Shown here: piece by piece, positions 22,701 through 55,157 of the stretch | How positions within the stretch are numbered: position 1 is the stretch's first letter | Layout: each line of letters opens with the position of its first letter | Made by a program: the position numbers and the translations under genes | IMG/VR virus record: IMGVR_UViG_3300033388_000874 | Coordinates: 639-64,638 of that record | Strand: one strand, 5' to 3' | Length of the DNA stretch: 64,000 nucleotides | DNA from: a virus | Notes under the pieces: generated by a model | What the model was told of the DNA's origin: nothing | The model's input: only the letters and a program-made list of their open reading frames with translations | Databases searched by the model: none

Positions 22701-25700
22701 AAGCGGTAGTCAAGGAAGCTAACACACGTTTGAGATTCGCTTTGAATCGTGCGAAGAAATTCCTCGACCGATTCGATACTACCGGTGAGTACGGAACGTA
22801 CGTTGCAGATAATACGAATGTGGATGGCACATTGACACAAGCGGCCCGTGATTTCATGGCGGCTCGTGCGGTACTACACGAACTCGCCGACTTCGCAAAT
22901 TCAGCACTCGCATCTGGAAACACGAGCAACGCCCACGCAAAGATGGCGAAGAAGGTTGCTATCGCATTGGAGCGGGTGAAGCTCGGCAAGATGACTCCGC
23001 AGTTGTTCGCGAAAGAGTTTAGCGCGGTCGCCGAGTCAACAGACTATAAGATGTTGAGGAACGTACCTGCTCGCTTCAAAGAGTCTGCCACGGTGCGCGA
23101 CAAGAAGATCACCAAGAGCAACAACGAACGCCACAATGCGAACGTGCGTCAGGATCGCTTGGAGAATAAGTGGGGTAAGGACAAGATTTGGACAGAGAAT
23201 GTCGGCCCCATATTCCGTAAGTTCAGCGACGCAATGCTATCAGGTATGCGGTTGCAGTCGGGTGCGATAACCCCCTACTACAACCCAACGCTGCTTGAGA
23301 TTGAGGGGCTGCGATATGCTCTACGCACGTTCCGCAAGATGACCCAGCGGTATCCGACGAGTGAGTTCTACACACCTGTTAAGGAACAGCTTGAGTACTA
23401 CGGCTTTGAGTTCGATGCCAGTGGTGATGTCATCGTACAAGATTTTAGCCCGAGCGAGAACTTGCTGGGTTCCAGCTTCATCGAGAAGCATGGTGTATCG
23501 AAGAAAGCTGCTGGGGAAATTAGTGGTACTGGCCCAGTTCGCACAGATGTAATCGTGACACCTGATTCGACAGCGGTGCGCGGTGCGCGTGACAAGGCTG
23601 ATAAGGTTAAAGCGGTCAGTGGAATCAACATGGCGAACGCCTTGCTTGAGAAATTACAGGGTATGGTTTATACCGCGAAAGTCACAATTAACGGTATAAA
23701 GCGTCAGGAGCAGCGATTCATACGCGGGCTTAGAAAGCTCGGCGCATGGACAGATACGTCTCCCGGCATGGGAAAGATCAGTTTTGGTGGGTATGCGAGC
23801 AGAACGTACCGTCTGGTTGGCCCGAGGTTGGACAATCGCACCATGAGTAAGGGGGAGGCCAAGGGTGCAATTGAGCATTTGAAGCGTTTTGCGATGCCTC
23901 GCGAATTAGCGGCATTGGCCCGTTCGCAGCAGAATGTTGACGCTGCCAGTAACATCGACGAATTCATAGATACTAACAGCACGGAGTTCTTTTTAGAAGA
24001 ATTGAAACTCGAAGAAAATTCACCAGCCCTTGACAATGCTGCCAGTACTGTGGGTGACATTATCCGCGACAAGTACTCGGCGGCGTCGATCAACGATGTA
24101 CTCGATGCCATCATTGAGCAATTACCATCTGACCACTTCTATCATCGGTTAGCAGTGAAACTTCGTTCGCTGGGTATGGCGGATGTGACGTTGCAGTACG
24201 ACTGGACTGGTTCAAAATTCCACGGTAAGAAACGCAACCATCTCGGCATGTTTGATCCGAGTACCAACCGTGCGTATCTGAACCGGCGCAAGATGCTCGA
24301 TGACATGGATGTGATGTCAGGTAGCAAGGCTATCCACACCATGCTCCATGAAATGCTCCACGCTGCCACGCACAATGCGTTGGCTCATAGCTGGCCCCTA
24401 CGCAACCAGATGTTCCAGATACGTGCTGCCGCTTACCACCAGTGGGTGAAGGCAAACGGCAAGAAGAACCTACCTATAGGTTTGCGGCTTACTGATAGTC
24501 AGGGCAATCCCGCACCTGTTGATGAATTCGTTGTGGAAGTGTTTTCCGATGAAAACTTGCAGGATCACCTTCGCAACACGCCTGTAGAATTGGAAGGGTC
24601 GGCAACTGGCCTATCCGCCGCGTGGTCGAAGATCAAAGACGTACTTATCGAGATTCTGGGATGGGGTAACGTACCCGAAGTCCGTAACCTACTCGACGGA
24701 TTCATGGCTACCGCCGATGAAGTATTTTCTCAGGCAGGGGTTGCGCGTGAAGGTTCGGACGTACTCAATCTTGAATTGTATGACACACAACTTGGGAACG
24801 TCGCACGATCTGCATGGGATAAGATCAGCCAGCACAGCAGCATTGTCCAACGTGTGAAAGATGCAGGTGGGTCAGTTTTACGTAATATCCAGACGCTTGA
24901 GCAGTTCGTCGAGAACTACGCCAAGGAGTTCGTGGCAGATGGTAAGTCGATGCTCCAGCAGTACAGTGATGCATTCAACGCTCGTAACGCGAGAGCTAGT
25001 GAGTACATGAACGTGCCACAGGCTATCTCGCAGCAGTGGACGAAGTTGGAAGAAACTGACCCTGCCGGTGCGCTGGAACTTAGTCGCATCGGTACGGTAG
25101 CATCATTGAATCGTGTCACTGCCGCTGAAGCACCTGAAGACGGTAACGCGACTCACGCTGACATACACGCCCGTTACAATGCGTTATCAGCCGAAGCGAA
25201 GAAGGTCTACCAAGCCACGACAAAATACTATACCGAAGCATCCCAGCGCGAGCATATGTTCCTGCTCCAGTCGGCACTGCGCGGTATTATGACGAACAAG
25301 CAAGGTATCGGCATTGACCTCGACGTATTCGAGTCGAAGTTCAACGTCGCAGAGCTTGGCAAGATCGAGTCACGTGAAGACTTATCCAACATGATCGGGG
25401 AATACGTACCCGAAGAAGCGCGGTCTGAGATGATCGACCAGCTTTACAGAATGTCTGTCGTTCCACGGCAGCAGAAAGGCGACTACTTCCCTGCCATGCG
25501 TTACGGGGATGAGGTCGTGTATGCAGAGAAGTTAGCGCAGGAACAAATTTTTGAGGATCGCAAAGAAGCATGGGGTGTTCGCGCAGAGATAGCTGCCACA
25601 GACCCGACGCTTGACGTACAGATGTTGAAGACCGACGATGGAATGTGGGCCGTACGTACGTTCGAGCGCGAGTTTGTTATGGCTGAATCAGTGAGTGAGA

Positions 25701-42575: not shown

Positions 42576-42944
42576 TCATGGGTGGTATGCCCCGCTGATG
42601 CAGTGAAGTAGTTCGTGGCCGAGTGCGTCCATTGCCGGATCACCTAACACCTGTTCCGGTAGCGTTGCGGTGATGAGGCACCAAGAGAAATTGTTGTCGA
42701 AGTCTGGTGTGTACTCTGCGTACGCCTCATACCCATCGGGCATGTCATCCTTATCGATGAAGTTCACCATGACTATGGAACCTCGCAGGAAGTATTCGGC
42801 TATGACCGGGGGGCCGTAGGGTTCGTAACACACTTGGTCAGAGGGGGGCGCGGGATCAGTGGTCATCCACTTCATAAGCCCATAAGAAAGGCCAGCACCA
42901 GTGAATAGTACTAGCCAGAAAACTACCGTCGCCAACCTTGTCAT
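42576..42944 (-). CDS. membrane-anchored HExxH metallopeptidase-like protein
   Basis: 122 aa; N-terminal TM/signal 'LATVVFWLVLFTGAGLSYGL'; C-terminal 'LGHELLHCISGAYHP'; preceded by palindromic motif copy 1 and a sigma70-like promoter. Confidence 0.4.
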   Translation of the reverse strand: MTRLATVVFWLVLFTGAGLSYGLMKWMTTDPAPPSDQVCYEPYGPPVIAEYFLRGSIVMVNFIDKDDMPDGYEAYAEYTPDFDNNFSWCLITATLPEQVLGDPAMDALGHELLHCISGAYHP

Positions 42945-42954
42945 AGTGTCGCCT

Positions 42955-42969
42955 TTACAACCGTTGTAA
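42955..42969. repeat. palindromic motif copy 1 (TTACAAC-C-GTTGTAA on plus)
   Basis: directly downstream of the -10 of a TTGACT-16nt-TAAGAT promoter (43005..42978, minus) and 10 nt before AAGGCGA-ATG of 42576..42944. Confidence 0.6.
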
Positions 42970-42977
42970 GATGGGCC

Positions 42978-43005
42978 ATCTTAGCACACTGATAAGTAGA
43001 GTCAA
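42978..43005 (-). promoter_or_regulatory. sigma70-like promoter (minus strand)
   Basis: TTGACT (43005..43000), 16-nt spacer, TAAGAT (42983..42978); palindromic motif starts about +2. Confidence 0.35.
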
Positions 43006-43059
43006 CCTACGTTTTGGGTGCCTAAACGAAGGGTATAACCTGCACCTATAGACAATAAA

Positions 43060-43092
43060 AAACCCCGACCAGCATTGCGCCAGCCGGGGTAC
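43060..43092 (-). terminator. putative rho-independent terminator (minus strand)
   Basis: minus-strand CCCCGGCTGG...CTGGTCGGGG imperfect GC stem followed by TTTTTT(ATT). Confidence 0.4.
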
Positions 43093-43107
43093 TTACAACC
43101 GTTGTAA
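43093..43107. repeat. palindromic motif copy 2
   Basis: between the stop of 43111..43908 and the minus-strand terminator hairpin. Confidence 0.6.
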
Positions 43108-43110
43108 GTT

Positions 43111-43908
43111 TTAGTTGGTATGGACAGAGGGGTATCCGTCCACGTGCCGCACTTCAATCATCATGCTCATTTGTACGAGTATGTGAGTAAGCGCCTCGAA
43201 GACACGTCGCTCGAATACTAATTCCTCTGGGGTTTGGTCTTCGTGTCGTGGTTCGAGGGAGAGGAACTGATCGACAGTACCCCAATCGGATATACGTGTT
43301 GGCATTCTAGACTTCATGTTTGCCTGACGCGCTACGTCGCGGCACTCGACAGGCATGAAGGCCATCAACTCAGGCCAGATTCTCATCAGTTGTCCGGGCG
43401 TGTTACAGGCTATTCCGGGTGTCGGGCCTCCACGCCGACCTCCCGTTGTGCTGTTAAAGCCTGCATAGTCATCCCACTCCCAATCGAATAGGTCATCAAC
43501 GCGCTTATACAACTTCTTCCGTAGCTTCTTTAGCTTGATCGCCTTACATACCCATGCTTGGATATTCTCTTGCACATCGACATGCAACTGTGCGAACTCC
43601 ACCGGGATATCAGGTCTTCGCTTACCATCGGGGAAACCGAACGTAATGTGATCCCGCTCCCATGTCGATCTGCCTTTCTTATCGTCTGTGAACAACTCGA
43701 ACGAGTCGCTACGGCTCAGACATTTCCGACCCAACTTACTATCCAATAGTACCTCAAGTGAGTTCCACTGTTTCTTTTTGAACGCGGGTCGATAGACATC
43801 TTCCAACGCATCAAACTTAACAGGATTTACAATCTCACAGTACTTGTCGAAGTGTCGGCAGACTTGGTTGGCAATGCGACTGCGGAAGTCCCGATTAAAG
43901 CGCGTCAT
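43111..43908 (-). CDS. hypothetical protein
   Basis: 265-aa ORF followed by a hairpin + T-run terminator on the minus strand. Confidence 0.4.
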   Translation of the reverse strand: MTRFNRDFRSRIANQVCRHFDKYCEIVNPVKFDALEDVYRPAFKKKQWNSLEVLLDSKLGRKCLSRSDSFELFTDDKKGRSTWERDHITFGFPDGKRRPDIPVEFAQLHVDVQENIQAWVCKAIKLKKLRKKLYKRVDDLFDWEWDDYAGFNSTTGGRRGGPTPGIACNTPGQLMRIWPELMAFMPVECRDVARQANMKSRMPTRISDWGTVDQFLSLEPRHEDQTPEELVFERRVFEALTHILVQMSMMIEVRHVDGYPSVHTN

Positions 43909-45166
43909 CGATCAAATCCACTTCAATAATCTCGCCCGGTATGTCGTGACTTGGGCGATAGTCTGTCGTTGCACACCATATGACTGGAAAGTCTGCATCT
44001 GTCGGGAAGCTACCGCCCATGTCTGTGAAGTACACCAGACAATCAGGACGTAGCCCATGTTCCTCAAGCCACACGAACGGTGGAATGAATGACGTACCTC
44101 CGCCACCTCCCAACGAACATAGCTCCGGTTGACCACGTAACGTGTCACCGCTTCCCAACTCATGCACAGTATCTACACGTGCATCGCATCCCATCAGGTA
44201 AACGAACTCCGGGTTGCAGTCAGTCAGAATCTTGTCACACTCAGTTAGTCCTTGTGCGATCTCCATCTGTGACATGCTTCCCGATGTATCAACTACGAAT
44301 ACAACCACTCCGCAACCAAAGCCTTTGTAGCTCGGCATGATAACGCCTTGGGTGATGTACCTTCGACGATTGAGCTTGCTCCAGTCACTCGCATCCCTGC
44401 CTATAGCCTTGGTGAATGCGTACCGTAGTTTCTCCGTCCACGGAATCTTCGGCTTAAGTAATTCATCGACGAATCTCTCAAGTCCCGCTGGCATTTTACC
44501 CATTGCCTTGGCAGCGTCTCCCGCTGTTTTGACAGCACGTTTCCATTCGACTTCACTACCAGTATTGGCAGCACTAGGCATAACGTGTGTGTCAAGCGTA
44601 CCGTCACCCTGTCCTTCCGGGCCTTGGTTGTTGTGACCACCCCCACCATCGCCCTGACCTTGACCTTCGGCATCGCCCTCACCGCCGCCACCTTCCTGCT
44701 GTTGCTTGAGTAGCTTACGGTACACTTCGTCAACCATGTCACCAGCCGATGCGATACTTACATCGTGCAAGCCCAGCTTCGGCATCTTACCAATCCTCGA
44801 CACAACTAACATATCGTTGATTACATAGTCACCAGCTTGGTTCCATAGACGCGGGTCAAACTTCTTACCATCGAACCCTGTGTCCTGATACTTCTTGCCA
44901 CGTGACATATGTGACCACATTGCGTGACCAACTTCGTGGCACATGACAAACACCGCTTCAGGCAGTTTGAGTGATTCGATGAAGTCCTCATCGATCCACA
45001 CGTTCTTACCGTCCGTCGCCATAGTCTCGTTACCCGGTGGAAATATCTGTGGGAACTTACCGAGCTTTATGACCATCATGTCCAGAAGTAACGATGCAAA
45101 GAATGGGCAATGCAAAAGCATCGCCGTCTTACACTCAGTTAGTTTCTGCTGTGCCGACATTTGCAT
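43895..45166 (-). CDS. vWA domain protein with N-terminal metallopeptidase-like domain (DUF2201-type MoxR partner)
   Basis: 423 aa; 'VFVMCHEVGHAMWSH' HExxH; MIDAS 'VVFVVDTSGSMS'; Gly/Gln-rich linker; standard partner of MoxR AAA+ ATPases. Confidence 0.65.
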   Translation of the reverse strand: MQMSAQQKLTECKTAMLLHCPFFASLLLDMMVIKLGKFPQIFPPGNETMATDGKNVWIDEDFIESLKLPEAVFVMCHEVGHAMWSHMSRGKKYQDTGFDGKKFDPRLWNQAGDYVINDMLVVSRIGKMPKLGLHDVSIASAGDMVDEVYRKLLKQQQEGGGGEGDAEGQGQGDGGGGHNNQGPEGQGDGTLDTHVMPSAANTGSEVEWKRAVKTAGDAAKAMGKMPAGLERFVDELLKPKIPWTEKLRYAFTKAIGRDASDWSKLNRRRYITQGVIMPSYKGFGCGVVVFVVDTSGSMSQMEIAQGLTECDKILTDCNPEFVYLMGCDARVDTVHELGSGDTLRGQPELCSLGGGGGTSFIPPFVWLEEHGLRPDCLVYFTDMGGSFPTDADFPVIWCATTDYRPSHDIPGEIIEVDLIDDAL

Positions 45167-46439
45167 ACTCCTTCATCATGCCAAAGATAGCAGTTGCCTG
45201 TTCACCCAACCGCCTACGGAGTGCGTCGTCCTTACGCACATCTTTTACGTCATGGTTGGTGAGCTTACCCTTCACTCGCAGACGTATAGCCTCGATCCGC
45301 TCGTCCTTTGTGACGTTAAGATGAGACAGCATCGACGCATGCTCTGCCAACTTATCGAACAGAGTGTAGTGGAACATTGCGTCCGGGTTTGATAACGCCG
45401 TTGCAGCACGTTCAACATCGTCATACAGACGTTGCCAAGCATCCTGCATTGCATTTTCCAACCGCTTCTGCGTCTTGCGTTGCAATGCACCAGCTAACTT
45501 CTCAACCTGTGCATCCTGCAAGCCCTGATAGTCACCGCCGACAGGTATCGGCTCAAAGTCAAACTCCAACGTGAAGTGTTGCTCAATCGCAGCGGGGGCA
45601 GGATACTCATTCTGATTGAATGCCTTTCCTAACTTCTGTTGCGAGATAGCGATCAGCGTTGGGTATGCTGTCGTGAACTTATCAAGCGACTCAAGCATTT
45701 CGACCTTGTGCATGCCCATTATCTGCGCGTACTCAAAGAACAGTGTGTTCGGAAGTAGCCGAGCGCCGGAACGCTTGCCGTGATCGTTGATCCCAACGGT
45801 TGACCACGGAAGGGTCATCCGGTAGTGATCGGTACGAGCAGCATCGATAGCTTTATGCACACGTTTCAGTTTCTCGTCGGCACCGACAAGCAATCTCTTG
45901 CGCGCCTCGAATGACTTAGCATCTGCACCGCTGGCATCCGCAGCATCCTTCGCTGCTTTGCGATCCTTAACCTTCGCATGCCACCTTCTATTCGTGAGTG
46001 ACACAAGAGTACCGAAGTTACGTATGTCCATCTCCTCCATAATCTCCTCACTCGTGAACGTAGGTACCGGAACGATATGCTCCTCAACAGCTTCACTGAA
46101 CATGGTGTTGTCGATCTCAGGAAGATCAGCCGCGTTTACAACGGTTGTAAGTTCCTGTTCCTCGATAGCACTGATCGCCTCGGGTGTCGCAGCAACTACC
46201 GCCGCCGTTTCCTCATTGAGTAACGATTCAAGGGTTGCATTGCTACTTGGTACAGGTGGTGATAACGGTCGCGACACTGGACTATTCGGGTAGCTAGGGT
46301 CGGGCGCACCTTCGACCTGTGGGGTTTCAGGGGTGTCGGGTGCTATAGCACTAGGTGCTACAGTTTCCTCTACCACTGGCTCTTTATCTTGCAATACGTC
46401 ATCGAGTAATGACTGTATATCCATGTCAAATCCTGACAT
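45135..46439 (-). CDS. hypothetical protein with acidic, Pro-rich N-terminal region
   Basis: 434-aa ORF between the vWA and MoxR genes; contains motif copy 3 in frame (ELTTVVNAADL). Confidence 0.4.
   Translation of the reverse strand: MSGFDMDIQSLLDDVLQDKEPVVEETVAPSAIAPDTPETPQVEGAPDPSYPNSPVSRPLSPPVPSSNATLESLLNEETAAVVAATPEAISAIEEQELTTVVNAADLPEIDNTMFSEAVEEHIVPVPTFTSEEIMEEMDIRNFGTLVSLTNRRWHAKVKDRKAAKDAADASGADAKSFEARKRLLVGADEKLKRVHKAIDAARTDHYRMTLPWSTVGINDHGKRSGARLLPNTLFFEYAQIMGMHKVEMLESLDKFTTAYPTLIAISQQKLGKAFNQNEYPAPAAIEQHFTLEFDFEPIPVGGDYQGLQDAQVEKLAGALQRKTQKRLENAMQDAWQRLYDDVERAATALSNPDAMFHYTLFDKLAEHASMLSHLNVTKDERIEAIRLRVKGKLTNHDVKDVRKDDALRRRLGEQATAIFGMMKEYANVGTAETN
46135..46149. repeat. palindromic motif copy 3 (inside ORF 45135..46439, in frame as TTVV)
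   Basis: exact TTACAACGGTTGTAA. Confidence 0.6.
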
Positions 46440-46450
46440 ATGTTTCTCCT

Positions 46451-47521
46451 TTACATGCTCGAAAGCAAGTTAGCGTTCACGATGAGTGCCTTGTTCTCTT
46501 TAACCCACTTGGCAAAGTCCTGATTGTTCAGAACTTGGGGCTGACGTTTCAATGTTGCCTTGAGTCCAGCTACCTGAAATTCTTCTGGCATACGTTTCAG
46601 ATAATTGAACGCGGGTGCTGCCGTACCACCGTCGACACGATGCGCGATCATTTGCATAGTTGCGAACTGTGCATCGGGTCGATCAGTCTCAGGTAGTTTG
46701 CAGCCCTTCGGATCAGCTACGATTTCATCAAAGGTTGGCAGTTGCTCAACCACTCGCAGGAATGATGTAAACTCTGCTGCTGCACCTTCACCGATGTACC
46801 CTGCTGCTGCCTCAGTGAACAAGTCACTAGGTAGTTGCTCAATCAGGTAGGACATTTGCACGAACGAACGTGGTGTGCAGAATGGCCCGGCCTTCTCGGG
46901 TACTGTGTCTTGGAATACCAGACCGGGCTTGTGCTTCGCGAATGCAATCGCTGCCCAATGGATATCCCCTTTACGTTCGGCCCAGTCCACCCAACTATCC
47001 AAGTCAGGCGTAATGGTGATTAGCATACGTCTGTTGGTAACGAACATGAGTTCACGTTGCACACCCGAGCGATCCTTCTCTCGGTTAGATGCTGCGAGTA
47101 CCATGTACGTGATTGGAAGCCATGAGTCATTCACCCTACCTTTCAGTAGTAACTCTGCGGCTGGCTTTTGCACATCATGTGCTGATTGCCGAAACTCATC
47201 CAAGAAGATGAACCCATGATCGGGATCGCCAGATCGCGGCATCCACGGCGCACGTGTGTAGTTCATAATCTTATTGCCTTCCTCATCCGAACCCGGTAGT
47301 CCGAAGCCGCCCATGTCGGGTGCCTCCTTACTGTTGAGAAAGAAGTCTTTGTTGGCGAAGGGCAATTCCATTTCCTCGCCCAACTCAACTGCCAACTGAT
47401 CCACCATTTCTGACTTACCAAGTCCCGGCCCGGATTCCAACTCAATGGTGAATCGGTTTCCTGTCTTAACTTGCTGGTGGTACGTTGACTTAATCAACTG
47501 CTTTGCTTGCATGATATTCAT
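46451..47521 (-). CDS. MoxR-like AAA+ ATPase
   Basis: ATG at 47521 after GAGGAAA and palindromic motif copy 4 (track extends to 47563 through the motif); Walker A 'ESGPGLGKSE', Walker B 'FIFLDEF'. Confidence 0.65.
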   Translation of the reverse strand: MNIMQAKQLIKSTYHQQVKTGNRFTIELESGPGLGKSEMVDQLAVELGEEMELPFANKDFFLNSKEAPDMGGFGLPGSDEEGNKIMNYTRAPWMPRSGDPDHGFIFLDEFRQSAHDVQKPAAELLLKGRVNDSWLPITYMVLAASNREKDRSGVQRELMFVTNRRMLITITPDLDSWVDWAERKGDIHWAAIAFAKHKPGLVFQDTVPEKAGPFCTPRSFVQMSYLIEQLPSDLFTEAAAGYIGEGAAAEFTSFLRVVEQLPTFDEIVADPKGCKLPETDRPDAQFATMQMIAHRVDGGTAAPAFNYLKRMPEEFQVAGLKATLKRQPQVLNNQDFAKWVKENKALIVNANLLSSM

Positions 47522-47940
47522 ACTGTTTCCTCGTTTACAACGGTTGTAAGATCGACCATGCACACCGTATCTTCTGGTGCGCCAATGGCCGAATGATAAC
47601 GCTGATACTTATCAGCAAATGTGCTTCCCTGAATGATGTAAATCATGCCGGGAAAGTTCTCTTGTATACGTATCCAAGCTGCGCTCTCGATACACGTATC
47701 TTCATCCTCCATCGTTCGCAGTAATAGACAAATCCTATCCGTCACTTCACCTTCGTTACGCATGAAATACACCTGATGTTCTCCTTCGACAATCACGAAT
47801 CTCATGTTGGTATGTTCTAGTTGGTGGCGGGTTCCTTCACCGTAATGCAAGAACTCCCAATCACACTTGTCAACGGGTGCTGCAAAACATACGGTGCTAT
47901 TCTCGGGCTGATTAACCCTTTGGTCTGGGTACAGAATCAT
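47518..47940 (-). CDS. hypothetical protein
   Basis: ATG at 47940 preceded by AAAAGGAGG (track start 48036); C-terminus '...DLTTVVNEETV*' reads through motif copy 4; ATGA overlap with the MoxR start. Confidence 0.4.
   Translation of the reverse strand: MILYPDQRVNQPENSTVCFAAPVDKCDWEFLHYGEGTRHQLEHTNMRFVIVEGEHQVYFMRNEGEVTDRICLLLRTMEDEDTCIESAAWIRIQENFPGMIYIIQGSTFADKYQRYHSAIGAPEDTVCMVDLTTVVNEETV
47535..47549. repeat. palindromic motif copy 4
   Basis: followed on the minus strand by ACGAGGAAACAGT-ATG (MoxR start). Confidence 0.6.
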
Positions 47941-48047
47941 GCGACCTCCTTTTACGCTCAATCGATGCGTATGCGCGACGCTGCTTACGGTTAGTGGGAA
48001 AGTGTTTCTCATTCCCAATTGCGGATACGTCCCCAAAAAAGAAACGC

Positions 48048-48326
48048 CTAATCTTCTTCCAGAATTTCATTGACTACTCCGTGTTTTTCCGCTGTCTCAT
48101 CGAATCCAATGAGCGTAATGATTGGGAAGAATTCCCTGAACAGAAACAGGTGCGACATATAATTTGCACCCATGAGTCTCATAGCCTTAACTGCTAGGTT
48201 CCAGTCCTCCAAGTTGCCTAGCTGTTTGGCAAGGTCTTCTGCCGCTGCCATGATAAAAAAGATATTGCCATCTGGCCCGGTAACGTCCAGACACAACCCT
48301 AACTGCGAGTCTCTATACACGGCCAT
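48048..48326 (-). CDS. hypothetical small protein
   Basis: 92-aa ORF, same strand and tight spacing in the early operon. Confidence 0.35.
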   Translation of the reverse strand: MAVYRDSQLGLCLDVTGPDGNIFFIMAAAEDLAKQLGNLEDWNLAVKAMRLMGANYMSHLFLFREFFPIITLIGFDETAEKHGVVNEILEED

Positions 48327-48335
48327 GATAACGGC

Positions 48336-48620
48336 CTACGCGAACAATGCAGGGACTATGAATGCATCCTCCGCTATTTCGCAGTCAAGTATTCCCTCCG
48401 CGAGTACGGTAGCTGGCCCATCCTTCGACCAATGTGGCAACATCACCACGCGGAATCGTTGGAATTCCTCGTCATCCATCAATCGCTGAAACACCTGCGT
48501 CTGAACGCGGCCATTCCAACTAGCCGCCTCCACCTGCAAGCCCGAGTCTTTCGATCCACCGCGAGTAACTTGCTTACTTCCATTACCCTGTAGCGAACCA
48601 TAGAAAGTCATCTTACCCAT
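48336..48620 (-). CDS. hypothetical small protein
   Basis: 94-aa ORF. Confidence 0.35.
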   Translation of the reverse strand: MGKMTFYGSLQGNGSKQVTRGGSKDSGLQVEAASWNGRVQTQVFQRLMDDEEFQRFRVVMLPHWSKDGPATVLAEGILDCEIAEDAFIVPALFA

Positions 48621-48783
48621 TCTGTTCTCCTTCCAGTTTCATGCCCCAAACATCACGCCAGTACTCATCGTTGTATTCGATTTGCACTGGTTGTCGGGCG
48701 TTAGATTGTGGTTCCCACTCAAGTGTGTCGATGGTGGGGTCTGCCGTGTTGTAAGGGTCGGTTCCTTTTGTGTTGTCTGACAT
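48613..48783 (-). CDS. hypothetical small protein
   Basis: ATG at 48783 6 nt after AAGGAGA, directly downstream of motif copy 5 (track extends to 48843 through the motif). Confidence 0.35.
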   Translation of the reverse strand: MSDNTKGTDPYNTADPTIDTLEWEPQSNARQPVQIEYNDEYWRDVWGMKLEGEQNG

Positions 48784-48794
48784 TCCTGTCTCCT

Positions 48795-48809
48795 TTACAA
48801 CGGTTGTAA
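48795..48809. repeat. palindromic motif copy 5
   Basis: TAG stop, motif, AGGAGACAGGA, ATG. Confidence 0.6.
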
Positions 48810-49082
48810 CTATTTGATGCCGACTCCCATGCAGTCCCACCAAGCTAGGTTGGGTACATATGAATTAGAAGCAGCGTCCCATTCGCCGAGATCATGCGAC
48901 TCATTCAAGTGCGCACACTTCTGTACCAAAGTCTGTTGGGGTGTGGGGGGTGCGGTGATAACGCTTTCGCCCTTGGCTGTTTGGATCAGTGCTACCACGA
49001 TCACTATATATAGCAGCGCAAGGCATGATAGGGACAGAGCTACCAGTCCCAACTCCATTTGCCTACGTATGTTACGGCGCAT
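48810..49082 (-). CDS. small membrane protein
   Basis: 90 aa; 'LVALSLSCLALLYIVIVVALI' TM helix; stop TAG immediately followed by motif copy 5. Confidence 0.4.
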   Translation of the reverse strand: MRRNIRRQMELGLVALSLSCLALLYIVIVVALIQTAKGESVITAPPTPQQTLVQKCAHLNESHDLGEWDAASNSYVPNLAWWDCMGVGIK

Positions 49083-49362
49083 AGTTATTCTCCTGTGCCT
49101 CGATTAACTCCTGCAACTTCGTTGTGAAGCCCGGATCGTTAGTGGAAAAGATGATGCTTTTATTGAACATCGTCTCGCGGTTCTTCTGCCATGCGTAGGC
49201 AACTCGTTGTGCAGAGTCGGCGGGCAAGGGTGCGTTGTTCCGCATCCAATGATCGCCTATGTAACAGGTGTGTCCAATGAATTGGAGTGCTGCTTGCAAC
49301 TCATCGTATGCCTGCTCAACGTCCTGTGTGTCTACGCACATACGTACACTAAACTCAATCAT
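49072..49362 (-). CDS. hypothetical small protein
   Basis: 96-aa ORF. Confidence 0.35.
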   Translation of the reverse strand: MIEFSVRMCVDTQDVEQAYDELQAALQFIGHTCYIGDHWMRNNAPLPADSAQRVAYAWQKNRETMFNKSIIFSTNDPGFTTKLQELIEAQENNYAP

Positions 49363-49577
49363 GGTAGTTCCTTATGTCAGAGAAATGATTGCCAACACGA
49401 TTGTCATGGTGGCAAGGATGCGGCGGTTGTCCGGGTGTCCAGCCCGGATCGTGTATGCCAGAATGGTAAGAAAGAAAGCGCCAAAGAATGCGACGCTGGT
49501 GATAACGCTAAAGGTCACGGTGACGCCCATCTAACTGATCGCCGCCTGAATTTCAGGGGTCAATTCTCGTTCTTTAT

Positions 49578-49841
49578 TCATGAAGTCTCCTTAATCGTCC
49601 AATCGAGGCCGGGGTACTGTCTCTCAACCTCGTGCATGGCCTCCTTCGTAGCTTGTTGCTCGGTACGGTTCATAATTTTCCATCTACCAACTATGGCCTC
49701 GCCGTCGTAAACCTCAACACGCCAATTCATGCGCATGTCATCTGTGAACACAATTGTCACACGTGGATCAGCTTGAGACTCGTCGTCGTACTCGGCAGTT
49801 TTAACTGTTCTGCCAACAATATCGCTGATGAACTTCTTCAT
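49578..49841 (-). CDS. hypothetical small protein
   Basis: 87 aa; motif copy 6 then AAGGAGA, 6 nt, ATG. Confidence 0.4.
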   Translation of the reverse strand: MKKFISDIVGRTVKTAEYDDESQADPRVTIVFTDDMRMNWRVEVYDGEAIVGRWKIMNRTEQQATKEAMHEVERQYPGLDWTIKETS

Positions 49842-50152
49842 TCGTCTATCTCCTTTACAACGGTTGTAAGATATGCCTTGCCATCACTGTGATACCAAGA
49901 CATGAATCGAGCATAGAATCTGTGCCCAGCCCCATTACCTTTCGGGGGCGTGTTGCCTGTGATTGATTGCATCCACCACTCAATAACCTCCATTTTGTAT
50001 AGCGCGGCCTTTGCCCAATTCTCAGGCTCTGGCCCATGCACTAGGAGACACATGATATATTTAGGCTCACGCCGGGTGCGTTTTTGCTTTCGGGACTTTC
50101 GACTGGCGTTGCTTGGCATTCCAGTTCTCCTTGCACCAGTGCATGTACTCAC
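49838..50152 (-). CDS. hypothetical small protein
   Basis: 104 aa; C-terminus '...AYLTTVVKEIDE*' reads through motif copy 6; ATGA overlap. Confidence 0.35.
   Translation of the reverse strand: MSTCTGARRTGMPSNASRKSRKQKRTRREPKYIMCLLVHGPEPENWAKAALYKMEVIEWWMQSITGNTPPKGNGAGHRFYARFMSWYHSDGKAYLTTVVKEIDE
49855..49869. repeat. palindromic motif copy 6
   Basis: motif, AGGAGATAGACGA, ATG. Confidence 0.6.
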
Positions 50153-50366
50153 CGTATAGCCCCTGATGTGGGTTGTGTTCCAGTTCGCCCATCATGTCCT
50201 TGATGCGCATACCGTAGTTGACATTCTTCGCGACGTACCTTCGTTGTGCATCCAATCCAGCGTGTAAGATCGGGGGGATTGGGGGTTCGCCGAACATGAG
50301 TAGTAGCGTTACGAATAGAATCTCTGCATCTTCTACTCGGCCACCATTGTATTGCTTGTTGTTCAT
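50067..50366 (-). CDS. hypothetical small protein
   Basis: ATG at 50366 in ATGA overlap with the upstream stop (track extends to 50432). Confidence 0.3.
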   Translation of the reverse strand: MNNKQYNGGRVEDAEILFVTLLLMFGEPPIPPILHAGLDAQRRYVAKNVNYGMRIKDMMGELEHNPHQGLYGEYMHWCKENWNAKQRQSKVPKAKTHPA

Positions 50367-50908
50367 TGCATTTGCCTCGCATACGTGCGCGTGATAACGC
50401 CGTGTCGCTGTTCGTATTGCCACCTGTGCCAAGCGAAATAGAATTTGAGGAACTGTGCTGCCTGATTTCTAAACGTAGTGATCCCACGCTTAAGGCACCA
50501 CTCACGAACGTCTTGCTTCCAGAACATATGTTCCCTCTCAATCTCATCACCCAACGAATAGTTCCTGCCACGTCGGGCAAGCACGTATTCCTCCCAGCGC
50601 GGGAGTTCACCGAAGCGCACCATGCATTCAGTACATATGCTGTCTAATGCAGGGTAGGTGAACCCTTCCCGCCATTTGCTATACACATGATTCTTGCGAC
50701 GGACATATTTCTCTACTGCGTATCTCTCTTTCAGTGCCTTCTTCACGTTCTGCCCTCCATAACATCCGGTCAATACTTGTCGATAGGGCGTCGACTGCTG
50801 TGCGTAACGCATTCGATCCCGCTTTCCATCCATAGCGATCAACCAAGTAGCTGCTGACCACGCGATACCATTCGTTTGAATCACTCCACGGTGCGCATGG
50901 CCCTGCAA
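50363..50908 (-). CDS. hypothetical protein (start uncertain; conflicts with 50679..51050)
   Basis: 181-aa ORF (TTG start in track; first ATG at 50833); aromatic/basic composition typical of a globular protein. Confidence 0.3.
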   Translation of the reverse strand: MQGHAHRGVIQTNGIAWSAATWLIAMDGKRDRMRYAQQSTPYRQVLTGCYGGQNVKKALKERYAVEKYVRRKNHVYSKWREGFTYPALDSICTECMVRFGELPRWEEYVLARRGRNYSLGDEIEREHMFWKQDVREWCLKRGITTFRNQAAQFLKFYFAWHRWQYEQRHGVITRTYARQMQ

Positions 50909-50989
50909 CCAGCAAGACCTCCATCACTATGTCGGGAGAGTCCCGCTCTAGCAGTCTCCAAACTGCCGAGCGGTATTGCTCTCGGTTCA

Positions 50990-51277
50990 CTACTGTTGCC
51001 GCATGCGAGCGCGTGATAACGCTTCGTCGTAGGTAGCGCGGGATATACACTGCGCGCCGCTACGCCCGACTGATCTGTCCTCTATCCAGACGCCATTGTT
51101 TGATAGACATGATGCTTTCGCCTCACGTGCATCAAGCCTCGCATAGTGAGACTCCCACTGCGCGTCGGTATTCGGGGTTGTCGAACACCCAGACTCGGCG
51201 CTAAGTACGGCTATCGCCAAGACGATCATCAAGACCACTGTCCAGATACTTCTTTCGTCTTTCCTTTCCATTACCAT
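50990..51277 (-). CDS. secreted/membrane-anchored small protein
   Basis: 95 aa; 'WTVVLMIVLAIAVLSAESGCSTT' signal-peptide-like N-terminus. Confidence 0.4.
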   Translation of the reverse strand: MVMERKDERSIWTVVLMIVLAIAVLSAESGCSTTPNTDAQWESHYARLDAREAKASCLSNNGVWIEDRSVGRSGAQCISRATYDEALSRARMRQQ

Positions 51278-51504
51278 TCTCCTTCGTCTGATTCATATGT
51301 CTCAAACGCTAACTCGCTGACGCAAGTCCATCGCTCACCACCCACTGATTTCAACCTGCCGCCGCCATACTTCACAACCATAGCAGTCTGACCATCTGGA
51401 CAGACTATTCGGTTCGGCGTTGGCGAGAACGAGTTCTCACGTGTGTGGCTCGTATTTGCACAGCCTGCCATGATTAGCAGGCACAAGATCACAATCATCT
51501 TCAT
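51271..51504 (-). CDS. small lipoprotein
   Basis: ATG at 51504 after motif copy 7 + CAGGAG; 'MKMIVILCLLIMAGCANTSH' signal peptide with lipobox-like MAGC (track extends to 51642 through the motif). Confidence 0.45.
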   Translation of the reverse strand: MKMIVILCLLIMAGCANTSHTRENSFSPTPNRIVCPDGQTAMVVKYGGGRLKSVGGERWTCVSELAFETYESDEGEW

Positions 51505-51516
51505 TTCATACTCCTG

Positions 51517-51531
51517 TTTACAACGGTTGTA
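51517..51531. repeat. palindromic motif copy 7
   Basis: motif, ACAGGAGTATGAA, ATG (lipoprotein). Confidence 0.6.
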
Positions 51532-51559
51532 AGGTGTTGGGTTGTTAGGCGACGCAAGG

Positions 51560-51961
51560 CTACACCCATTCTCCATAGCGCCGCATTGAATGATACGCCG
51601 CACGTGATGCCGGTGTATCGTGTTTGGTAAGTACGTATGCAAGTGGCTTGTATAGCTCGGCCTCCAGCATCACCTGCCAAGGCATATGCTGACAGGTGAA
51701 ACCCTGCGCGCTCCCAAGCATCCAATCTTTGAGGTCTATAAGCTGCGATGATAACGGTGACTCTGCCTTGAGGCAGTAGTCTATGGCGTTAAGCAAGGCT
51801 ACCTTGAGCGCGAGGTATTTCTCATGCTGATGTGCTGCTCCACTAAAGGATATGTGGTAATAGCTGCTGATGTACTGCGAATGACCGGGATAAGACTGGT
51901 CTGTGTATCGCGGATGTAAGTCCGGGTTTGAAAGTTGCTGTTTGGAAGTTACGGTACTCAT
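51560..51961 (-). CDS. hypothetical protein
   Basis: 133 aa; motif copy 8 + CAGGAG upstream. Confidence 0.4.
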   Translation of the reverse strand: MSTVTSKQQLSNPDLHPRYTDQSYPGHSQYISSYYHISFSGAAHQHEKYLALKVALLNAIDYCLKAESPLSSQLIDLKDWMLGSAQGFTCQHMPWQVMLEAELYKPLAYVLTKHDTPASRAAYHSMRRYGEWV

Positions 51962-51978
51962 TACTTTGGTACTCCTGT

Positions 51979-51993
51979 TTACAACGGTTGTAA
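51979..51993. repeat. palindromic motif copy 8
   Basis: motif, ACAGGAGTACCAAAGTA, ATG. Confidence 0.6.
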
Positions 51994-52027
51994 GATTAAA
52001 GGTTTGAAATCGTGCGTGTCAAAGCTG

Positions 52028-52320
52028 TTTGGACAATCAGGCCAATCACTCGTATGGTTTGGTGAATGACTATCCTTTAGGATTAGATACTTACATGTGA
52101 ATGTCTGAATGTCCAGCGTTTTAAAATCAGGGACAAGTTAGGGAGTGGGGATGTTGGGTCGTTCGTAAAAACGCAAACATGTTCACTCTCAAGAAATCTC
52201 TATAAGGTTCTACCTTATATAAGTGAGACATTCAGACATTCATATATATATACACGTAATCTATAGGGTTTCCACTGTCAGACCACTGTCCGATTGTCCA
52301 AATCCGTTCTGGACATTCAC
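52028..52320. repeat. nested inverted repeats / iteron-like GACATTC repeats in a 500-bp non-coding region (candidate origin or control region)
   Basis: TTGGACAATC (52028-37) vs GATTGTCCAA (52291-300); GAATGTCTGAATGTC (52098-112) vs GACATTCAGACATTC (52226-240); third GACATTC at 52311-17; CATATATATATAC AT tract at 52240-52252; CCACTGTC x2 at 52271-89. Confidence 0.5.
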
Positions 52321-52500
52321 TTTAGTGCCTACAGTACGCGCTTATGATAACGGTTCTGCCTAAAGCCCCACATAATGACGTACTTTGAAAGTTGCTGTTT
52401 GGAACCTGACATACTGTGATCCTGTTGGGATTTGGGGTTCTCGCTACACGTGTAGGCAAATGAAAGCCGGGCGAACCCGGCAATCATTCTGTCCTGCATG

Positions 52501-53025
52501 TTACAGATTGTACTCGGCAACCAGTACGTTAAGCGCCTTGCGGAACTTAATGATCTTCTGGCTACGTGTTTCAATCAACTTGATCGCAGACAACGCACGT
52601 TCCAAAGCCTTTTCAGGACTTACAACGGTTGTAACTTTCTTGGCCTTGATCGACTTGATTACTGCGGCAACGGCATCCTTCCAACTTTCGTGCTTGGGTA
52701 ATGCGCGAGCCAACATCAAGACATGCGTACGGCGAAGCTCGCCGAAAGTCTTGCGGAACGCAGTGGTCGCTTCGCCGAAGTAATAAGGGTATGCAATCAA
52801 GCAAGCCTTAATCTCGGACTTCCGAGCGCCTTCCGAGCTAGTACCCTTCCACGGCGCGTCTGCGGCAACATCCGTCTGTACGTTAGCAATTTGCTCGGCA
52901 GTCATATCATCGCCACCAAAGGTTGCGGTGCATGCTTCCACTAAGCCTGACACCATCTGTTGCATGGTGATCGCAGTCTGTGAATCCAGCTTGCGAATGG
53001 AACTAACAATTGACTTGATACTCAT
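52501..53025 (-). CDS. first gene of the minus-strand early operon, hypothetical protein
   Basis: ATG at 53025 after motif copy 10 + GAGGAG (track extends to 53085); contains motif copy 9 in frame (KKVTTVVSPEK). Confidence 0.4.
   Translation of the reverse strand: MSIKSIVSSIRKLDSQTAITMQQMVSGLVEACTATFGGDDMTAEQIANVQTDVAADAPWKGTSSEGARKSEIKACLIAYPYYFGEATTAFRKTFGELRRTHVLMLARALPKHESWKDAVAAVIKSIKAKKVTTVVSPEKALERALSAIKLIETRSQKIIKFRKALNVLVAEYNL
52620..52634. repeat. palindromic motif copy 9 (inside ORF 52501..53025, in frame as TTVV)
   Basis: exact TTACAACGGTTGTAA. Confidence 0.6.
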
Positions 53026-53039
53026 GTGTCTAACTCCTC

Positions 53040-53054
53040 TTACAACGGTTGTAA
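53040..53054. repeat. palindromic motif copy 10
   Basis: motif, GAGGAGTTAGACAC, ATG of the first early gene. Confidence 0.6.
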
Positions 53055-53354
53055 GATTAGGTGGGCAGTGCGCCCGACCCTTCATAGTACGCGAGGATGG
53101 AAGCGTGTCGGGCCGAAGGGGGTGCGGTACCGGGCCGAGGGGGGCCGGGGGGCCAGCACCGTATTAGGTAGTTCATATACAACATCCCACTAATATAGCG
53201 TGTGCTTTTAACACCCATGTCTCATATCTTGTGCAATTGAGTGGGGAACTGCCCGAAGTATAAAGCATCCATATTTCCCTATACGGCAATACAACTGAGT
53301 ATTTAACCTTGTTTTATCCGGCCACAATTCAAGTTTCCCGGCCAAAAATACCCC

Positions 53355-54234: not shown

Positions 54235-54442
54235 GCCGCTACGAGTACAACTAACAATAAGTGCGTGGGGCGAGACGACCACTGACGAAGATATCGCGGT
54301 GTATGGGTCAGCAGTAAAATTCATGGCTATCTGGTTGATGAAACAAGATGGCGCGATGGGCAAGGACACCGAAGCCCTACTTAACGAATTCAAACATAAC
54401 GTCTGCACTGCAATGAGAGTGGGCGTACAGGGGACAGGGTAA
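54224..54442 (+). CDS. hypothetical small protein
   Basis: 72-aa ORF, coupled to neighbours. Confidence 0.3.
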   Translation: MTSEPLRVQLTISAWGETTTDEDIAVYGSAVKFMAIWLMKQDGAMGKDTEALLNEFKHNVCTAMRVGVQGTG

Positions 54443-54996
54443 TGGCATGGCTAAACAGCTTACTGACCAACTTTGCGGAAGCGTTCAAGTGGTTTTACAT
54501 CTTACAGCCGTGGGAGCAGGCGTTGCGCGTGAGATGTGGGAAGCATATCCGATTACACGCAGGCGGTTTGCATTTCAAAGTGCCGTACATCGACTTCATA
54601 TTCAAACAAAATACGCGACTAAGAATTTCGGATGTACCTGCTCAAACTATTACAACTTTAGACGCTCGAACTATAACTCTGTCGGGAGCTTTGCAATATC
54701 GTGTTGCCGACATTACACCGCTTTTTACGAAGTTACACATGGCGGAAAGCACGATAGCTCAAGAGTGTCAAGCGATTTTAACGGAGTATATCGCTTGGAA
54801 CGACTTCAGCCAATGCAGTCCGAAAGACGTAATGCTAAACGTGCAAAGAGAACTCAATTTGGAGAGGTACGGCCTCGCTGATGTTCGCTTCATACTTAAA
54901 GATTTCGCGGTTGTGAAAACGTACCGCTTCATTACTGGAGACATGGATACCTATTTGGATCACAGTCTCCAAACAGACGAACCGGAGGAAATGTAA
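54442..54996 (+). CDS. SPFH/band-7 (stomatin/prohibitin-like) domain protein
   Basis: 184 aa; 'HAGGLHFKVPYIDFIFKQNTRLRISDVPAQTITTLDARTITLSGALQYRVADI' matches the SPFH core (PG.hf.iPfid.v....R......p.q..T.D...v.v...v.yrv.D). Confidence 0.5.
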   Translation: MAWLNSLLTNFAEAFKWFYILQPWEQALRVRCGKHIRLHAGGLHFKVPYIDFIFKQNTRLRISDVPAQTITTLDARTITLSGALQYRVADITPLFTKLHMAESTIAQECQAILTEYIAWNDFSQCSPKDVMLNVQRELNLERYGLADVRFILKDFAVVKTYRFITGDMDTYLDHSLQTDEPEEM

Positions 54997-55157
54997 TGCC
55001 TAGACCAAAAAGCGATAATGTTCGCGCTCACGTGATGATGACGCAAAGTCAGCATGCGCGTATGCAAACACTATCAGCAAAAAGCGGGTACTCAATCTCG
55101 GAGCTAATGCGCCGAGCCATCGACTTGTATCTTACGAAGACTAAGAAAGATGGCTAA
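54996..55157 (+). CDS. ribbon-helix-helix (Arc/MetJ/CopG-like) DNA-binding protein, 53 aa (below the ORF-track cutoff)
   Basis: TAATG overlap with the SPFH stop; 'VRAHVMMTQSQHARMQTLSAKSGYSISELMRRAIDLYL' = beta-strand + helix A + helix B of an RHH fold. Confidence 0.5.
   Translation: MPRPKSDNVRAHVMMTQSQHARMQTLSAKSGYSISELMRRAIDLYLTKTKKDG

Follow-up and report, generated by a model that had tools for sequence, protein, structure and literature searches.

Ten exact palindromes in the early region of a podovirus-like phage and lineage-specific counterparts in its relatives

What are ten identical palindromes doing in the early region of a phage genome? The element is the 15-bp inverted repeat TTACAAC-N-GTTGTAA, and it lies in IMG/VR virus record IMGVR_UViG_3300033388_000874, of which we analysed a single 64,000-nucleotide stretch (positions 639 to 64,638 of the record; hereafter the window). 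The exact sites are confined to the early unit, and most related lineages carry a palindrome of their own at homologous positions. The feature is real, and the palindromes are a variant of a kind of phage element that has already been described and has not been explained. Exactness within a genome, difference between lineages and retention at homologous positions, even in coding sequence, together point to a trans-acting reader that co-evolves with its sites, and this factor is most likely phage-encoded. Our leading but tentative explanation is that the palindromes are multi-site operators in double-stranded DNA for a symmetric phage protein that controls the early unit.

The ten copies and their surroundings

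A pattern scan for TTACAACNGTTGTAA gave exactly 10 matches in the 64-kb window, all within 42955–53054, and no additional site appeared there even with 2 mismatches allowed. Shuffled sequences gave an expectation of 0.00 exact matches and 0.14 with up to 2 mismatches, and the chance of all 10 copies landing in 10.1 of 64 kb is ~6e-8; TTACAAC-N-GTTGTAA is also the sole repeated short palindrome of the window. A preliminary description of this locus, made from its letters alone, had judged ten exact copies restricted to the early region to be beyond chance, and the scan, the shuffles and the clustering bear this out. Eight of its coordinates were right and two were off by one (46136 had been given as 46135, and 51518 as 51517), and the C...G extension to 17 bp that it called frequent is present in only 2 of the 10 copies. 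Numbered as there and listed in the direction of the minus-strand genes, the copies are:

Copy 10, 53040–53054: in the 5′ untranslated region (UTR) of g1, with motif, g, AGGAG, 8 nt and ATG at 53025; ~29 nt 3′ of the −10-like TACTAT.
Copy 9, 52620–52634: in frame within g1 (peptide KVTTVVS); ~140 nt 5′ of the g1 terminator.
Copy 8, 51979–51993: 1 nt 3′ of TTGACA-16-TTTAAT; 2 nt 5′ of the g2 AGGAG (ATG at 51961).
Copy 7, 51518–51532: in the 55-nt gap between g2 and g3, 27 nt past the g2 stop; 2 nt 5′ of the g3 AGGAG (ATG at 51504).
Copy 6, 49855–49869: overlaps the 3′ end of g7 (..TTVVKEIDE*); adjoins the g8 AGGAG (ATG at 49841).
Copy 5, 48795–48809: immediately 3′ of the g11 TAG stop; adjoins the g12 AGGAG (ATG at 48783).
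Copy 4, 47535–47549: overlaps the 3′ end of g15 (..TTVVNEETV*); 13 nt 5′ of the ATPase ATG at 47521.
Copy 3, 46136–46150: in frame at codon 97 of a 434-aa gene, within a hypervariable acidic linker.
Copy 2, 43093–43107: 3 nt past the stop of gene 43111–43908, the last of the early operon; 2 nt 5′ of an intrinsic terminator.
Copy 1, 42955–42969: 8 nt past the −10 box of TTGACT-16-TAAGAT; adjoins AGG, 7 nt and the ATG of gene 42576–42944.

Seven of the ten are start-associated on the minus strand (42955, with a weak AGG, 47535, 48795, 49855, 51518, 51979 and 53040), having a Shine–Dalgarno (SD) sequence 0–3 nt and a start codon 10–17 nt after the motif; what follows these copies is an ordinary AGGAG-type SD only. 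Eight such copies had been counted before. The other three prove to be the two that lie in frame within genes (46136 and 52620, each encoding TTVV) and the one between a stop codon and a terminator. With ~20 minus-strand genes in the motif-bearing region, about 7 of 20 starts have a copy, rather than almost every early gene as first proposed. Two of the earlier placements stand: copy 1 follows TTGACT-16-TAAGAT, and copy 10 precedes the first gene of the minus-strand operon. On the gene-sense strand the central base is G in copies 1 and 2 and C in copies 3–10.

Promoter-like and terminator-like sequences adjoin some of the copies:

53084–53111, minus strand: promoter-like ccGACA-16-TACTAT 5′ of g1, picked out by eye.
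51995–52022, minus strand: promoter-like TTGACA-16-TTTAAT directly 5′ of copy 8.
42978–43005, minus strand: promoter-like TTGACT-16-TAAGAT 5′ of copy 1.
52466–52481, minus strand: intrinsic-terminator-like GCCGGG-TTCG-CCCGGC followed by TTTCATTT, directly 3′ of g1.
43062–43090, minus strand: intrinsic-terminator-like hairpin (13 pairs) followed by TTTTT, at the end of the motif-bearing unit.

Promoter-like sequence precedes three copies (10, 8 and 1) and none of the rest. A sigma70 promoter scan from 42 to 56 kb found 14 promoters against 15.2 expected, and this lack of enrichment indicates that the motif is not generally promoter-linked. In relatives, TATAGT, TTATAT or TATACC stands at an equal distance from the first motif copy, matching the promoter-like position at g1.

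The window is the nearly complete genome of a novel podovirus-like phage with no nucleotide match among 50,697 phage records (megablast and blastn). Its DNA polymerase A and the one encoded by Rhizobium phage RHph_TM3_14A share 37% identity, and synteny with that phage extends throughout. From ~53.1 kb the minus strand encodes small early genes, an N4 gp24-like ATPase (46451–47521), the 434-aa protein, an N4 gp25-like VWA/DUF2201 protein (43895–45160) and a 265-aa protein, up to the terminator at 43.06 kb; past it come polymerase A, an exonuclease, an SNF2 helicase and a DUF927 primase-helicase, and the structural genes are on the plus strand. From this layout and the 43.06-kb terminator, the motif-bearing stretch corresponds to the first transcription unit running leftward and, from the unit after it, the opening gene, 42576–42944, behind copy 1. 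The phage looks virulent, and gp24 and gp25 are all that it has in common with N4. Three genes recur below:

52501–53025, minus strand: g1, the first early gene, encoding 174 aa (all-alpha, pI 9.6).
45135–46439, minus strand: the 434-aa gene with an in-frame copy, between the genes for the gp24-like ATPase and the gp25-like VWA protein.
54996–55157, plus strand: an RHH protein (Pfam RHH_3, 2.3e-5), the candidate binder of the preliminary description.

The 434-aa protein has a conserved N-terminal peptide, FDxDIxSLLDDVL, then the hypervariable acidic linker, which is rich in Pro and Glu, and a conserved C-terminal domain of ~300 aa. Its resemblance to histone H2B was spurious, as the single-sequence match (E 0.003) vanished with a family profile. 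Elsewhere in the early region, several small proteins encoded on the minus strand, among them those at 51271–51504, 50990–51271 and 48810–49082, open with a segment of signal-peptide, lipobox-like or transmembrane type, such as MKMIVILCLLIMAGCA. On the minus strand, the ~470 nt (51994–52466) that separate the g1 terminator from the promoter-like element at copy 8 lack a convincing open reading frame. This stretch contains an AT-rich core, TATATATAT, two exact 11-nt inverted repeats and a 22-nt inverted repeat (52092–52113 and 52227–52248, 91%) made of GAATGTC units, and may be an origin or regulatory region.

Lineage-specific palindromes at the same positions

The N4 gp24/gp25-like ATPase–VWA module is common to the isolate RHph_TM3_14A and about 40 metagenomic relatives. 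Relatives were collected by an ATPase search (45 loci, designated by L numbers), and ~20 kb around the ATPase gene was examined in each; within this distance most of the lineages carry a multi-copy short palindrome of their own. Relatives with a 56–68% identical ATPase have different palindromes in the same architecture, namely TTAACAG.CTGTTAA, TTGCTAG.CTAGCAA, TTACACA.TGTGTAA, TTAACTG.CAGTTAA and TTACTCA.TGAGTAA, with 5–11 copies per 12–21-kb locus. The relatives fall into about a dozen motif classes, among them:

TTACAAC.GTTGTAA: the window, L105 and L126.
TTACACA.TGTGTAA: L112 and L113; the same arms with a 3-nt centre in L124.
TTACACCGGTGTAA: L114.
TTAACAG.CTGTTAA: L106 and L123.
TTAACTG.CAGTTAA: L122.
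TTGCTAG.CTAGCAA: L107 and L108.
TTACTCA.TGAGTAA: L120.
CACACA...TGTGTG types: L116–L125.
TTACCC-N3/4-GGGTAA: L134 and L135.
CACTACC/GGTAGTG: L132 and L133.

Across IMG/VR the exact 15-mer of the window is clustered in a handful of contigs, some of which are protein-similar to the window phage. Motif class does not track ATPase phylogeny: TTACAA arms accompany ATPases of 90% and of 43% identity, and the close relatives L122 and L123 differ by 1 bp per arm in every copy. No such palindrome was found in a few distant relatives or in Pseudomonas phage KPP25, a distant PolA relative.

The placement of the motif in related phages, a check that the preliminary description had called for, is conserved at homologous sites even though the palindrome itself differs by lineage. 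In 10 loci a copy precedes the ATPase start by 13–38 nt. An in-frame, lineage-specific palindrome is present in 14 of 18 loci within the acidic linker of the 434-aa gene, and the local palindrome sets the linker peptide (TTVV, NSLL, ASLA, TQCV or NCQL); each palindrome has only one reading frame without stop codons. Homologues of g1 have one motif copy upstream and another inside, and in several lineages the first copy falls in the g1 5′ UTR ~25–30 nt downstream of the −10 box. Several lineages also have a copy a few nucleotides before the terminator that ends the operon.

These placements exceed chance. An SD and start codon follow within 28 nt on the sense strand at 63 of 185 sites (21 loci), compared with 11.5% of random positions (p ~7e-16). 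A perfect-stem terminator follows within 12 nt at 8 of 235 sites, compared with 0.24% (p ~1e-7); the detector takes perfect stems only and therefore undercounts, with five more such sites missed for its strictness. In the contigs that underlie L114 and L066, no copies occur in 21–22 kb surrounding the portal gene, and from these copy-free late regions of two other lineages we conclude that restriction to the early unit recurs in window-like phages. RHph_TM3_14A and L134-type phages, unlike these, carry the motif genome-wide.

In RHph_TM3_14A (MN988472; L109/L110) the motif is TTACC-N6-GGTAA, present in 26 copies that are unannotated in the record, and about half of these lie at gene boundaries although the genome is 90% coding. 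Several are 0–3 nt past stop codons or 2–5 nt before start codons; another copy separates the stop of the major capsid gene from a terminator, and a further one falls precisely where two stop codons converge, between them.

A single genome can mix spacer lengths (N3 and N4 in L134/L135, N1 and N2 in L121), and lineages with equal arms differ in them too (TTACAC with N2, N3 or N5). L134/L135 have ~36 degenerate sites per 21 kb, T[TAG]AC[CT]C-N3/4-G[GA]GTAA. Their left-arm variants TAACCC and TGACCC always have the same orientation and supply the stop codon of the upstream gene, so an entire intercistronic region can be one motif (stop, hairpin/SD, start).

Two further loci have unusual arrangements. 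At 6214–6310 of L121 there are five tandem 20-bp units, GGGGTTCCACACACCTGTGTG, each with the palindrome of that lineage; the last is followed by CTTTTTCT, and the palindrome there thus looks like a weak intrinsic terminator. L157 (DATGIF010000032.1, a Xanthobacteraceae metagenome-assembled genome) is a relative with a 34%-identical ATPase in the middle of a 239-kb bacterial contig, a location suggesting that the group includes at least one distant lineage able to exist as a prophage.

What might read the palindromes

If the palindromes are operators in duplex DNA, a symmetric (dimeric) protein would read the two 6–7-bp arms and disregard the centre. The sites would tag one unit, which runs from the early promoter at about 53.1 kb as far as the 43.06-kb terminator, together with the first gene of the next unit, and occupancy of the ~10 sites would control the whole unit at once. 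Initiation could be blocked where a site overlaps +1 (copies 1 and 8), and elongation could be roadblocked at the other copies, as with multi-site stoperators. Protein binding, binding to duplex DNA and an outcome of repression or shut-off are what we infer here.

Several properties of the sites favour such operators. The centre is unoriented relative to transcription (8 C and 2 G in the window, 3 and 3 in L105, 5 and 3 in L106), its C/G orientation is also mixed in L107 and L108, and it is C or G in lineages with a single-base spacer. In L134/L135 the position-5 pair is C.G 17 times, T.G 6 times, C.A 6 times and T.A once; the arms therefore vary independently, which argues that base pairing is not under selection. 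There is no compensatory arm variation within a genome, and single-arm variants in other loci disrupt pairing. Reading as DNA is also favoured by the two copies directly after sigma70-like −10 boxes and by the relative with five tandem copies. An operator for a dimeric regulator was among three options in the preliminary description and is the best-supported class, on the strength of the invariant arms, the unoriented centre and the independently varying half-sites of a relative; the RHH protein suggested as the regulator did not hold up.

Other observations weigh against DNA operators. Variation in spacer length comes naturally to a hairpin and sits uneasily with a rigid dimer. Far more often than chance predicts, the motif ends 0–7 nt before the SD, even where the gap offers other positions; a DNA roadblock does not obviously need SD-adjacent placement. 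Most copies are away from promoters, and because the phage looks virulent the rationale of an immunity repressor is missing. No cognate protein was found in the window or in the ~20 kb per relative. The RHH protein is the only recognisable DNA binder, and its beta-strand face, R-x-H-x-x-x-T, is constant in homologues from 9 loci with four motif classes (TTACAAC, TTAACAG, TTAACTG and CACACA); near-identical RHH proteins accompany TTAACAG and TTAACTG, and we reject it as the specificity determinant. The g1 family occurs in many lineages, always with one motif copy upstream and one inside, but its subfamilies do not track motif class, leaving g1 unsupported as the binder; its structural model is confident (predicted local distance difference test, pLDDT, 87) and has no fold match in the PDB. 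When motif-positive and motif-negative loci were compared for presence or absence of gene families, none discriminated. Pfam scans of the L106 and L107 early operons found no DNA-binding domain, only sub-threshold zinc-ribbon matches.

Those sub-threshold matches are at 8339–8599 in L106 and 5809–6105 in L107, with another at 11298–11489 in L155 (Pfam DZR, E 0.006–0.017; Phage_zn_bind_8 weak). The small early proteins with these matches are possibly a family of nucleic-acid binders, and the family could not be mapped onto the window. On the plus strand, directly 5′ of the RHH gene, 54442–54996 encodes an SPFH/Band 7 protein (Pfam 6e-11); the two genes belong to a rightward operon leading into the terminase gene. 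In the early unit, g7 (49838–50119, minus strand) has an arginine- and lysine-rich N terminus, SRKSRKQKRTRREPK, and a motif-encoded end, TTVVKEIDE. Its homologues in L105, L112 and L124 keep the basic N terminus, and the family is confined to 4 lineages.

Less likely, yet a serious rival and the best placed of the alternatives, is an RNA element: a hairpin in the early polycistronic mRNA read by a phage RNA-binding protein or endoribonuclease that recognises the stem, as the endoribonuclease Cas6f/Csy4 does. Binding next to an SD would repress or tune translation, cleavage would yield units that start at the SD, and those located within genes or ahead of terminators would determine where mRNAs end or how stable they are. 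The SD proximity across lineages fits this well, with all 7 start-associated copies of the window 0–3 nt from an SD, and in RHph_TM3_14A and L134 the right arm is the SD itself (GAGGTAA, GGGTAA). The sites adjoin intrinsic terminators in a motif-then-terminator order that recurs across lineages, the spacer is flexible within a genome, the first copy falls in the g1 leader of several lineages, and g7 offers an arginine-rich N terminus.

The palindrome can indeed fold with the 3-nt loop given in the preliminary description, on a stem of 6 rather than 7 bp. At −2.0 to −3.6 kcal/mol, as RNA or DNA, the hairpin is only weakly stable, and folding of the 5′ UTRs, another check proposed there, leaves it outside the minimum-energy fold in 2 of 6 contexts. 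The loop varies and has no fixed orientation, which excludes a protein that reads the loop. A strand-bias test of G.U against C.A is informative only in L134/L135 and is balanced there, with as many sense-strand C.A mismatches as U.G wobbles (6 vs 6), and the single-arm variants of other loci break the pairing. The arginine-rich g7 family is limited to its 4 lineages, and Rfam 15 gave 0 matches at the gathering threshold in the whole window, where a tRNA scan was likewise empty. The earlier proposal of a 5′-UTR hairpin thus gains from SD adjacency that is conserved across lineages and loses from its weak energy and from pairing that is not selected where variation exists. A more specific version, a little less probable again, is that the palindromes punctuate early mRNA, each hairpin being bound or cut by a phage stem-reading protein or endonuclease whose specificity switches between lineages.

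It is improbable that the copies serve recombination, as exchange points at which co-infecting relatives shuffle early-gene cassettes and protein domains, much as with T4 PeSL cassettes (described below) or the Cluster O repeats, or as spreading miniature mobile palindromes. Junctions do coincide with them: the block of homology that the window shares with L105 stops precisely at copy 43093, the similarity of g1 between the window and L155 stops at the internal copy of L155, and the VTTVV-encoding copy occupies two alternative positions in g1 homologues, whose C termini diverge downstream. The independence of motif class from ATPase phylogeny points the same way, and deletions and insertions between repeats have been reported for Cluster O (PMC4351075). 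However, no recombinase, transposase or HUH enzyme was detected, 15 bp is short for homologous exchange, and random insertion cannot give different palindromes at the same positions in different lineages. Evolvability by itself attracts little selection, and the junctions may arise at repeats incidentally. We treat the junctions as a consequence of the repeats, not their purpose. The palindromes also differ from REP/RAYT (repetitive extragenic palindrome and its associated transposase) or MITE (miniature inverted-repeat transposable element) palindromes in lacking a transposase family match and in keeping their positions across lineages of differing sequence.

Slightly more doubtful is translational coupling without any protein, in which the stem masks or abuts the SD until a ribosome finishing the upstream cistron melts it. 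RHph_TM3_14A and L134/L135 look suited to this, with a right arm that is the SD, a left arm that mimics the anti-SD (TTACCTCC...GGAGGTAA) and, in L134, a left arm that often gives the upstream stop codon (TAACCC or TGACCC). The arms in the window have no SD content, the hairpins are weak, and the in-frame linker copies and pre-terminator copies have no downstream cistron; elements that act through structure alone need no identity, yet all 10 copies are exact.

A hairpin in single-stranded DNA, serving as an N4-type promoter for an injected polymerase or as an ssi-type priming site for a RepB′-like primase-helicase, is very improbable. A palindrome yields an identical hairpin on either strand, and the 6-bp stem with a 3-nt loop upstream of early genes resembles the N4 virion RNA polymerase (RNAP) promoters (stem 5–7 bp, loop 3 nt), whose early-promoter geometry we take it to share. 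The gp24/gp25 module is common with N4, and the 965-aa primase has a weak RepB_primase match. A giant protein offers a further link: the 2676-aa virion protein (19775–27805, plus strand) resembles N4 gp50 residues 348–432 at its residues 268–349 (E 0.002; an 88-residue N-terminal similarity), and the giant protein of RHph_TM3_14A matches the same gp50 region. The rest comprises a low-complexity middle with an HEMLH (HExxH) motif and a DarB-like C terminus, with no RNAP family match and no match to any solved structure. Those structures presumably include N4 polymerase entries, if deposited. As only the N-terminal similarity to gp50 was found, without a polymerase signal, we reject the protein as an N4-like virion RNA polymerase, and no virion-packaged RNAP emerged from these structure and family searches. 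N4 promoters have a fixed template-strand purine at the loop centre where orientation here is inconsistent. Transcripts begun in the N4 manner, 11 nt from the loop centre, would lack the SD; the phage has sigma70-like promoters; and priming sites would be needed genome-wide rather than in 10 kb alone.

Phage-specific promoters in the manner of T7, the remaining option of the preliminary description, are likewise unlikely; a transcript begun 3′ of the motif would lack the SD. T7-like phages pair a single-subunit RNAP with an asymmetric promoter of ~20 bp, whereas the present motif is symmetric, has copies in genes and before a terminator, and occurs in a phage for which Pfam and PHROG scans of ~50 proteins revealed no phage RNA polymerase or sigma factor. 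Least probable of all are binding sites of a host factor exploited by the phage: the motif of one lineage, TTAA-N7-TTAA, is what we take to be the CtrA box of Alphaproteobacteria, and hosts probably differ among lineages, as their GC contents do, but natural host operators are degenerate where the phage copies are exact, equal arms occur in phages with very different core genes, and the 1-bp-per-arm difference between L122 and L123 in all copies, together with the same arms beside 43% identical ATPases, makes host factors unlikely.

Known analogues and significance

The preliminary description knew of no such motif in characterised phages, but the Cluster O repeats, the Cluster K extended start-associated sequences (ESAS) and the L5 stoperators are close analogues. 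The 17-bp Cluster O repeat TGTTCGG-N3-CCGAACA has 34 copies with invariant 7-bp arms, a short variable centre and no meaningful orientation; the copies lie in short intergenic gaps, near gene 5′ ends and inside genes, recombination occurs between them, and the authors suggest a dimeric binding protein while leaving the function unassigned (PMC4351075). The window palindrome shares the invariant 7-bp arms, short variable centre and lack of orientation bias. It differs in sequence (TTACAAC-N-GTTGTAA) and in its restriction to 10.1 kb, where Cluster O repeats are genome-wide, as are those of RHph_TM3_14A. Cluster O also has one sequence type, in contrast to about a dozen that swap at homologous positions here.

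ESAS of Cluster K mycobacteriophages are inverted repeats that, for some genes only, directly precede the start region with its SD, and they have no function assigned; they occur only in the non-structural genome half, their consensus differs by subcluster while their position on homologous genes is kept, and departures in their arms do not support an RNA hairpin (PMC3203893). Their function was still without a test in 2025 (PMC12699233). The window motif resembles them in directly preceding the SD and start codon of some genes (7 of 10 copies), in non-structural genes and with a lineage-specific consensus. ESAS have imperfect 17-bp arms and a 4–13-bp spacer, unlike the exact 6–7-bp arms and 1–3-bp spacer of window-type motifs, and are accompanied by a 13-bp asymmetric start-associated sequence (SAS, GGGATAGGAGCCC) that has no counterpart here. 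The present palindromes also occur before terminators and in frame in the linker, and the hosts and phage types are unrelated.

Cluster A stoperators, the sites of L5 gp71, are likewise many copies of a short site in tiny intergenic gaps near stops and starts, with a subcluster-specific consensus that co-evolves with a phage protein and an effect on elongation as well as initiation (general background, with PMC9283540 and PMC6550527). They differ in being 13 bp, asymmetric, oriented with transcription and bound by the monomeric immunity repressor of a temperate phage, whereas the present sites are symmetric, unoriented perfect palindromes in a phage that looks virulent.

Two classical elements offer looser parallels. 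The lambda nut/boxB sites are lineage-specific hairpins of ~15 nt carried by early transcripts; one belongs to the leader of the first early gene, the other falls between a stop codon and a terminator, and copies occupy such positions here too. The lambda sites also go with an arginine-rich N protein; here an arginine-rich g7 exists in 4 lineages only. boxB is read through its loop together with boxA and has two copies per genome; here loops are free, stems are fixed and there are ~10 copies, and no boxA-like sequence was noticed when the motif flanks were read by eye, with no pattern search made. The T4 promoter(early)–stem-loop (PeSL) elements, each a sigma70 early promoter plus a terminator-like stem-loop, are short regulatory repeats beside small early genes at mosaic junctions. 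The present palindromes are likewise short, repeated, found next to small early genes and associated with mosaic junctions, but only 2–3 of the 10 copies adjoin promoter-like sequence.

Multi-copy palindromes at gene starts have been noted in mycobacteriophages for more than a decade, with no function assigned. The large clade described here, of mostly uncultivated podophages of Gram-negative hosts, amounts to a natural swap experiment, in which about a dozen palindromes occupy the same positions, including one inside a conserved gene. This swap pattern argues strongly for a co-evolving reader and offers a comparative route to it, and the cultured RHph_TM3_14A, with its 26 copies, makes function directly testable. 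If the reader acts on DNA, the palindromes would be a compact off-switch for a whole temporal gene class in a virulent phage. If it acts on RNA, they would be a new mechanism of operon punctuation, usable as orthogonal parts for synthetic biology. Such punctuation would be stand-alone processing like that of Cas6/Csy4, with cistrons released or silenced at their SDs and 3′ ends set before terminators; this would be a previously undescribed way to program a whole temporal class, and might explain ESAS and the Cluster O repeats. The most interesting aspect is the switching of specificity at fixed positions, which points to a fast-evolving recognition system.

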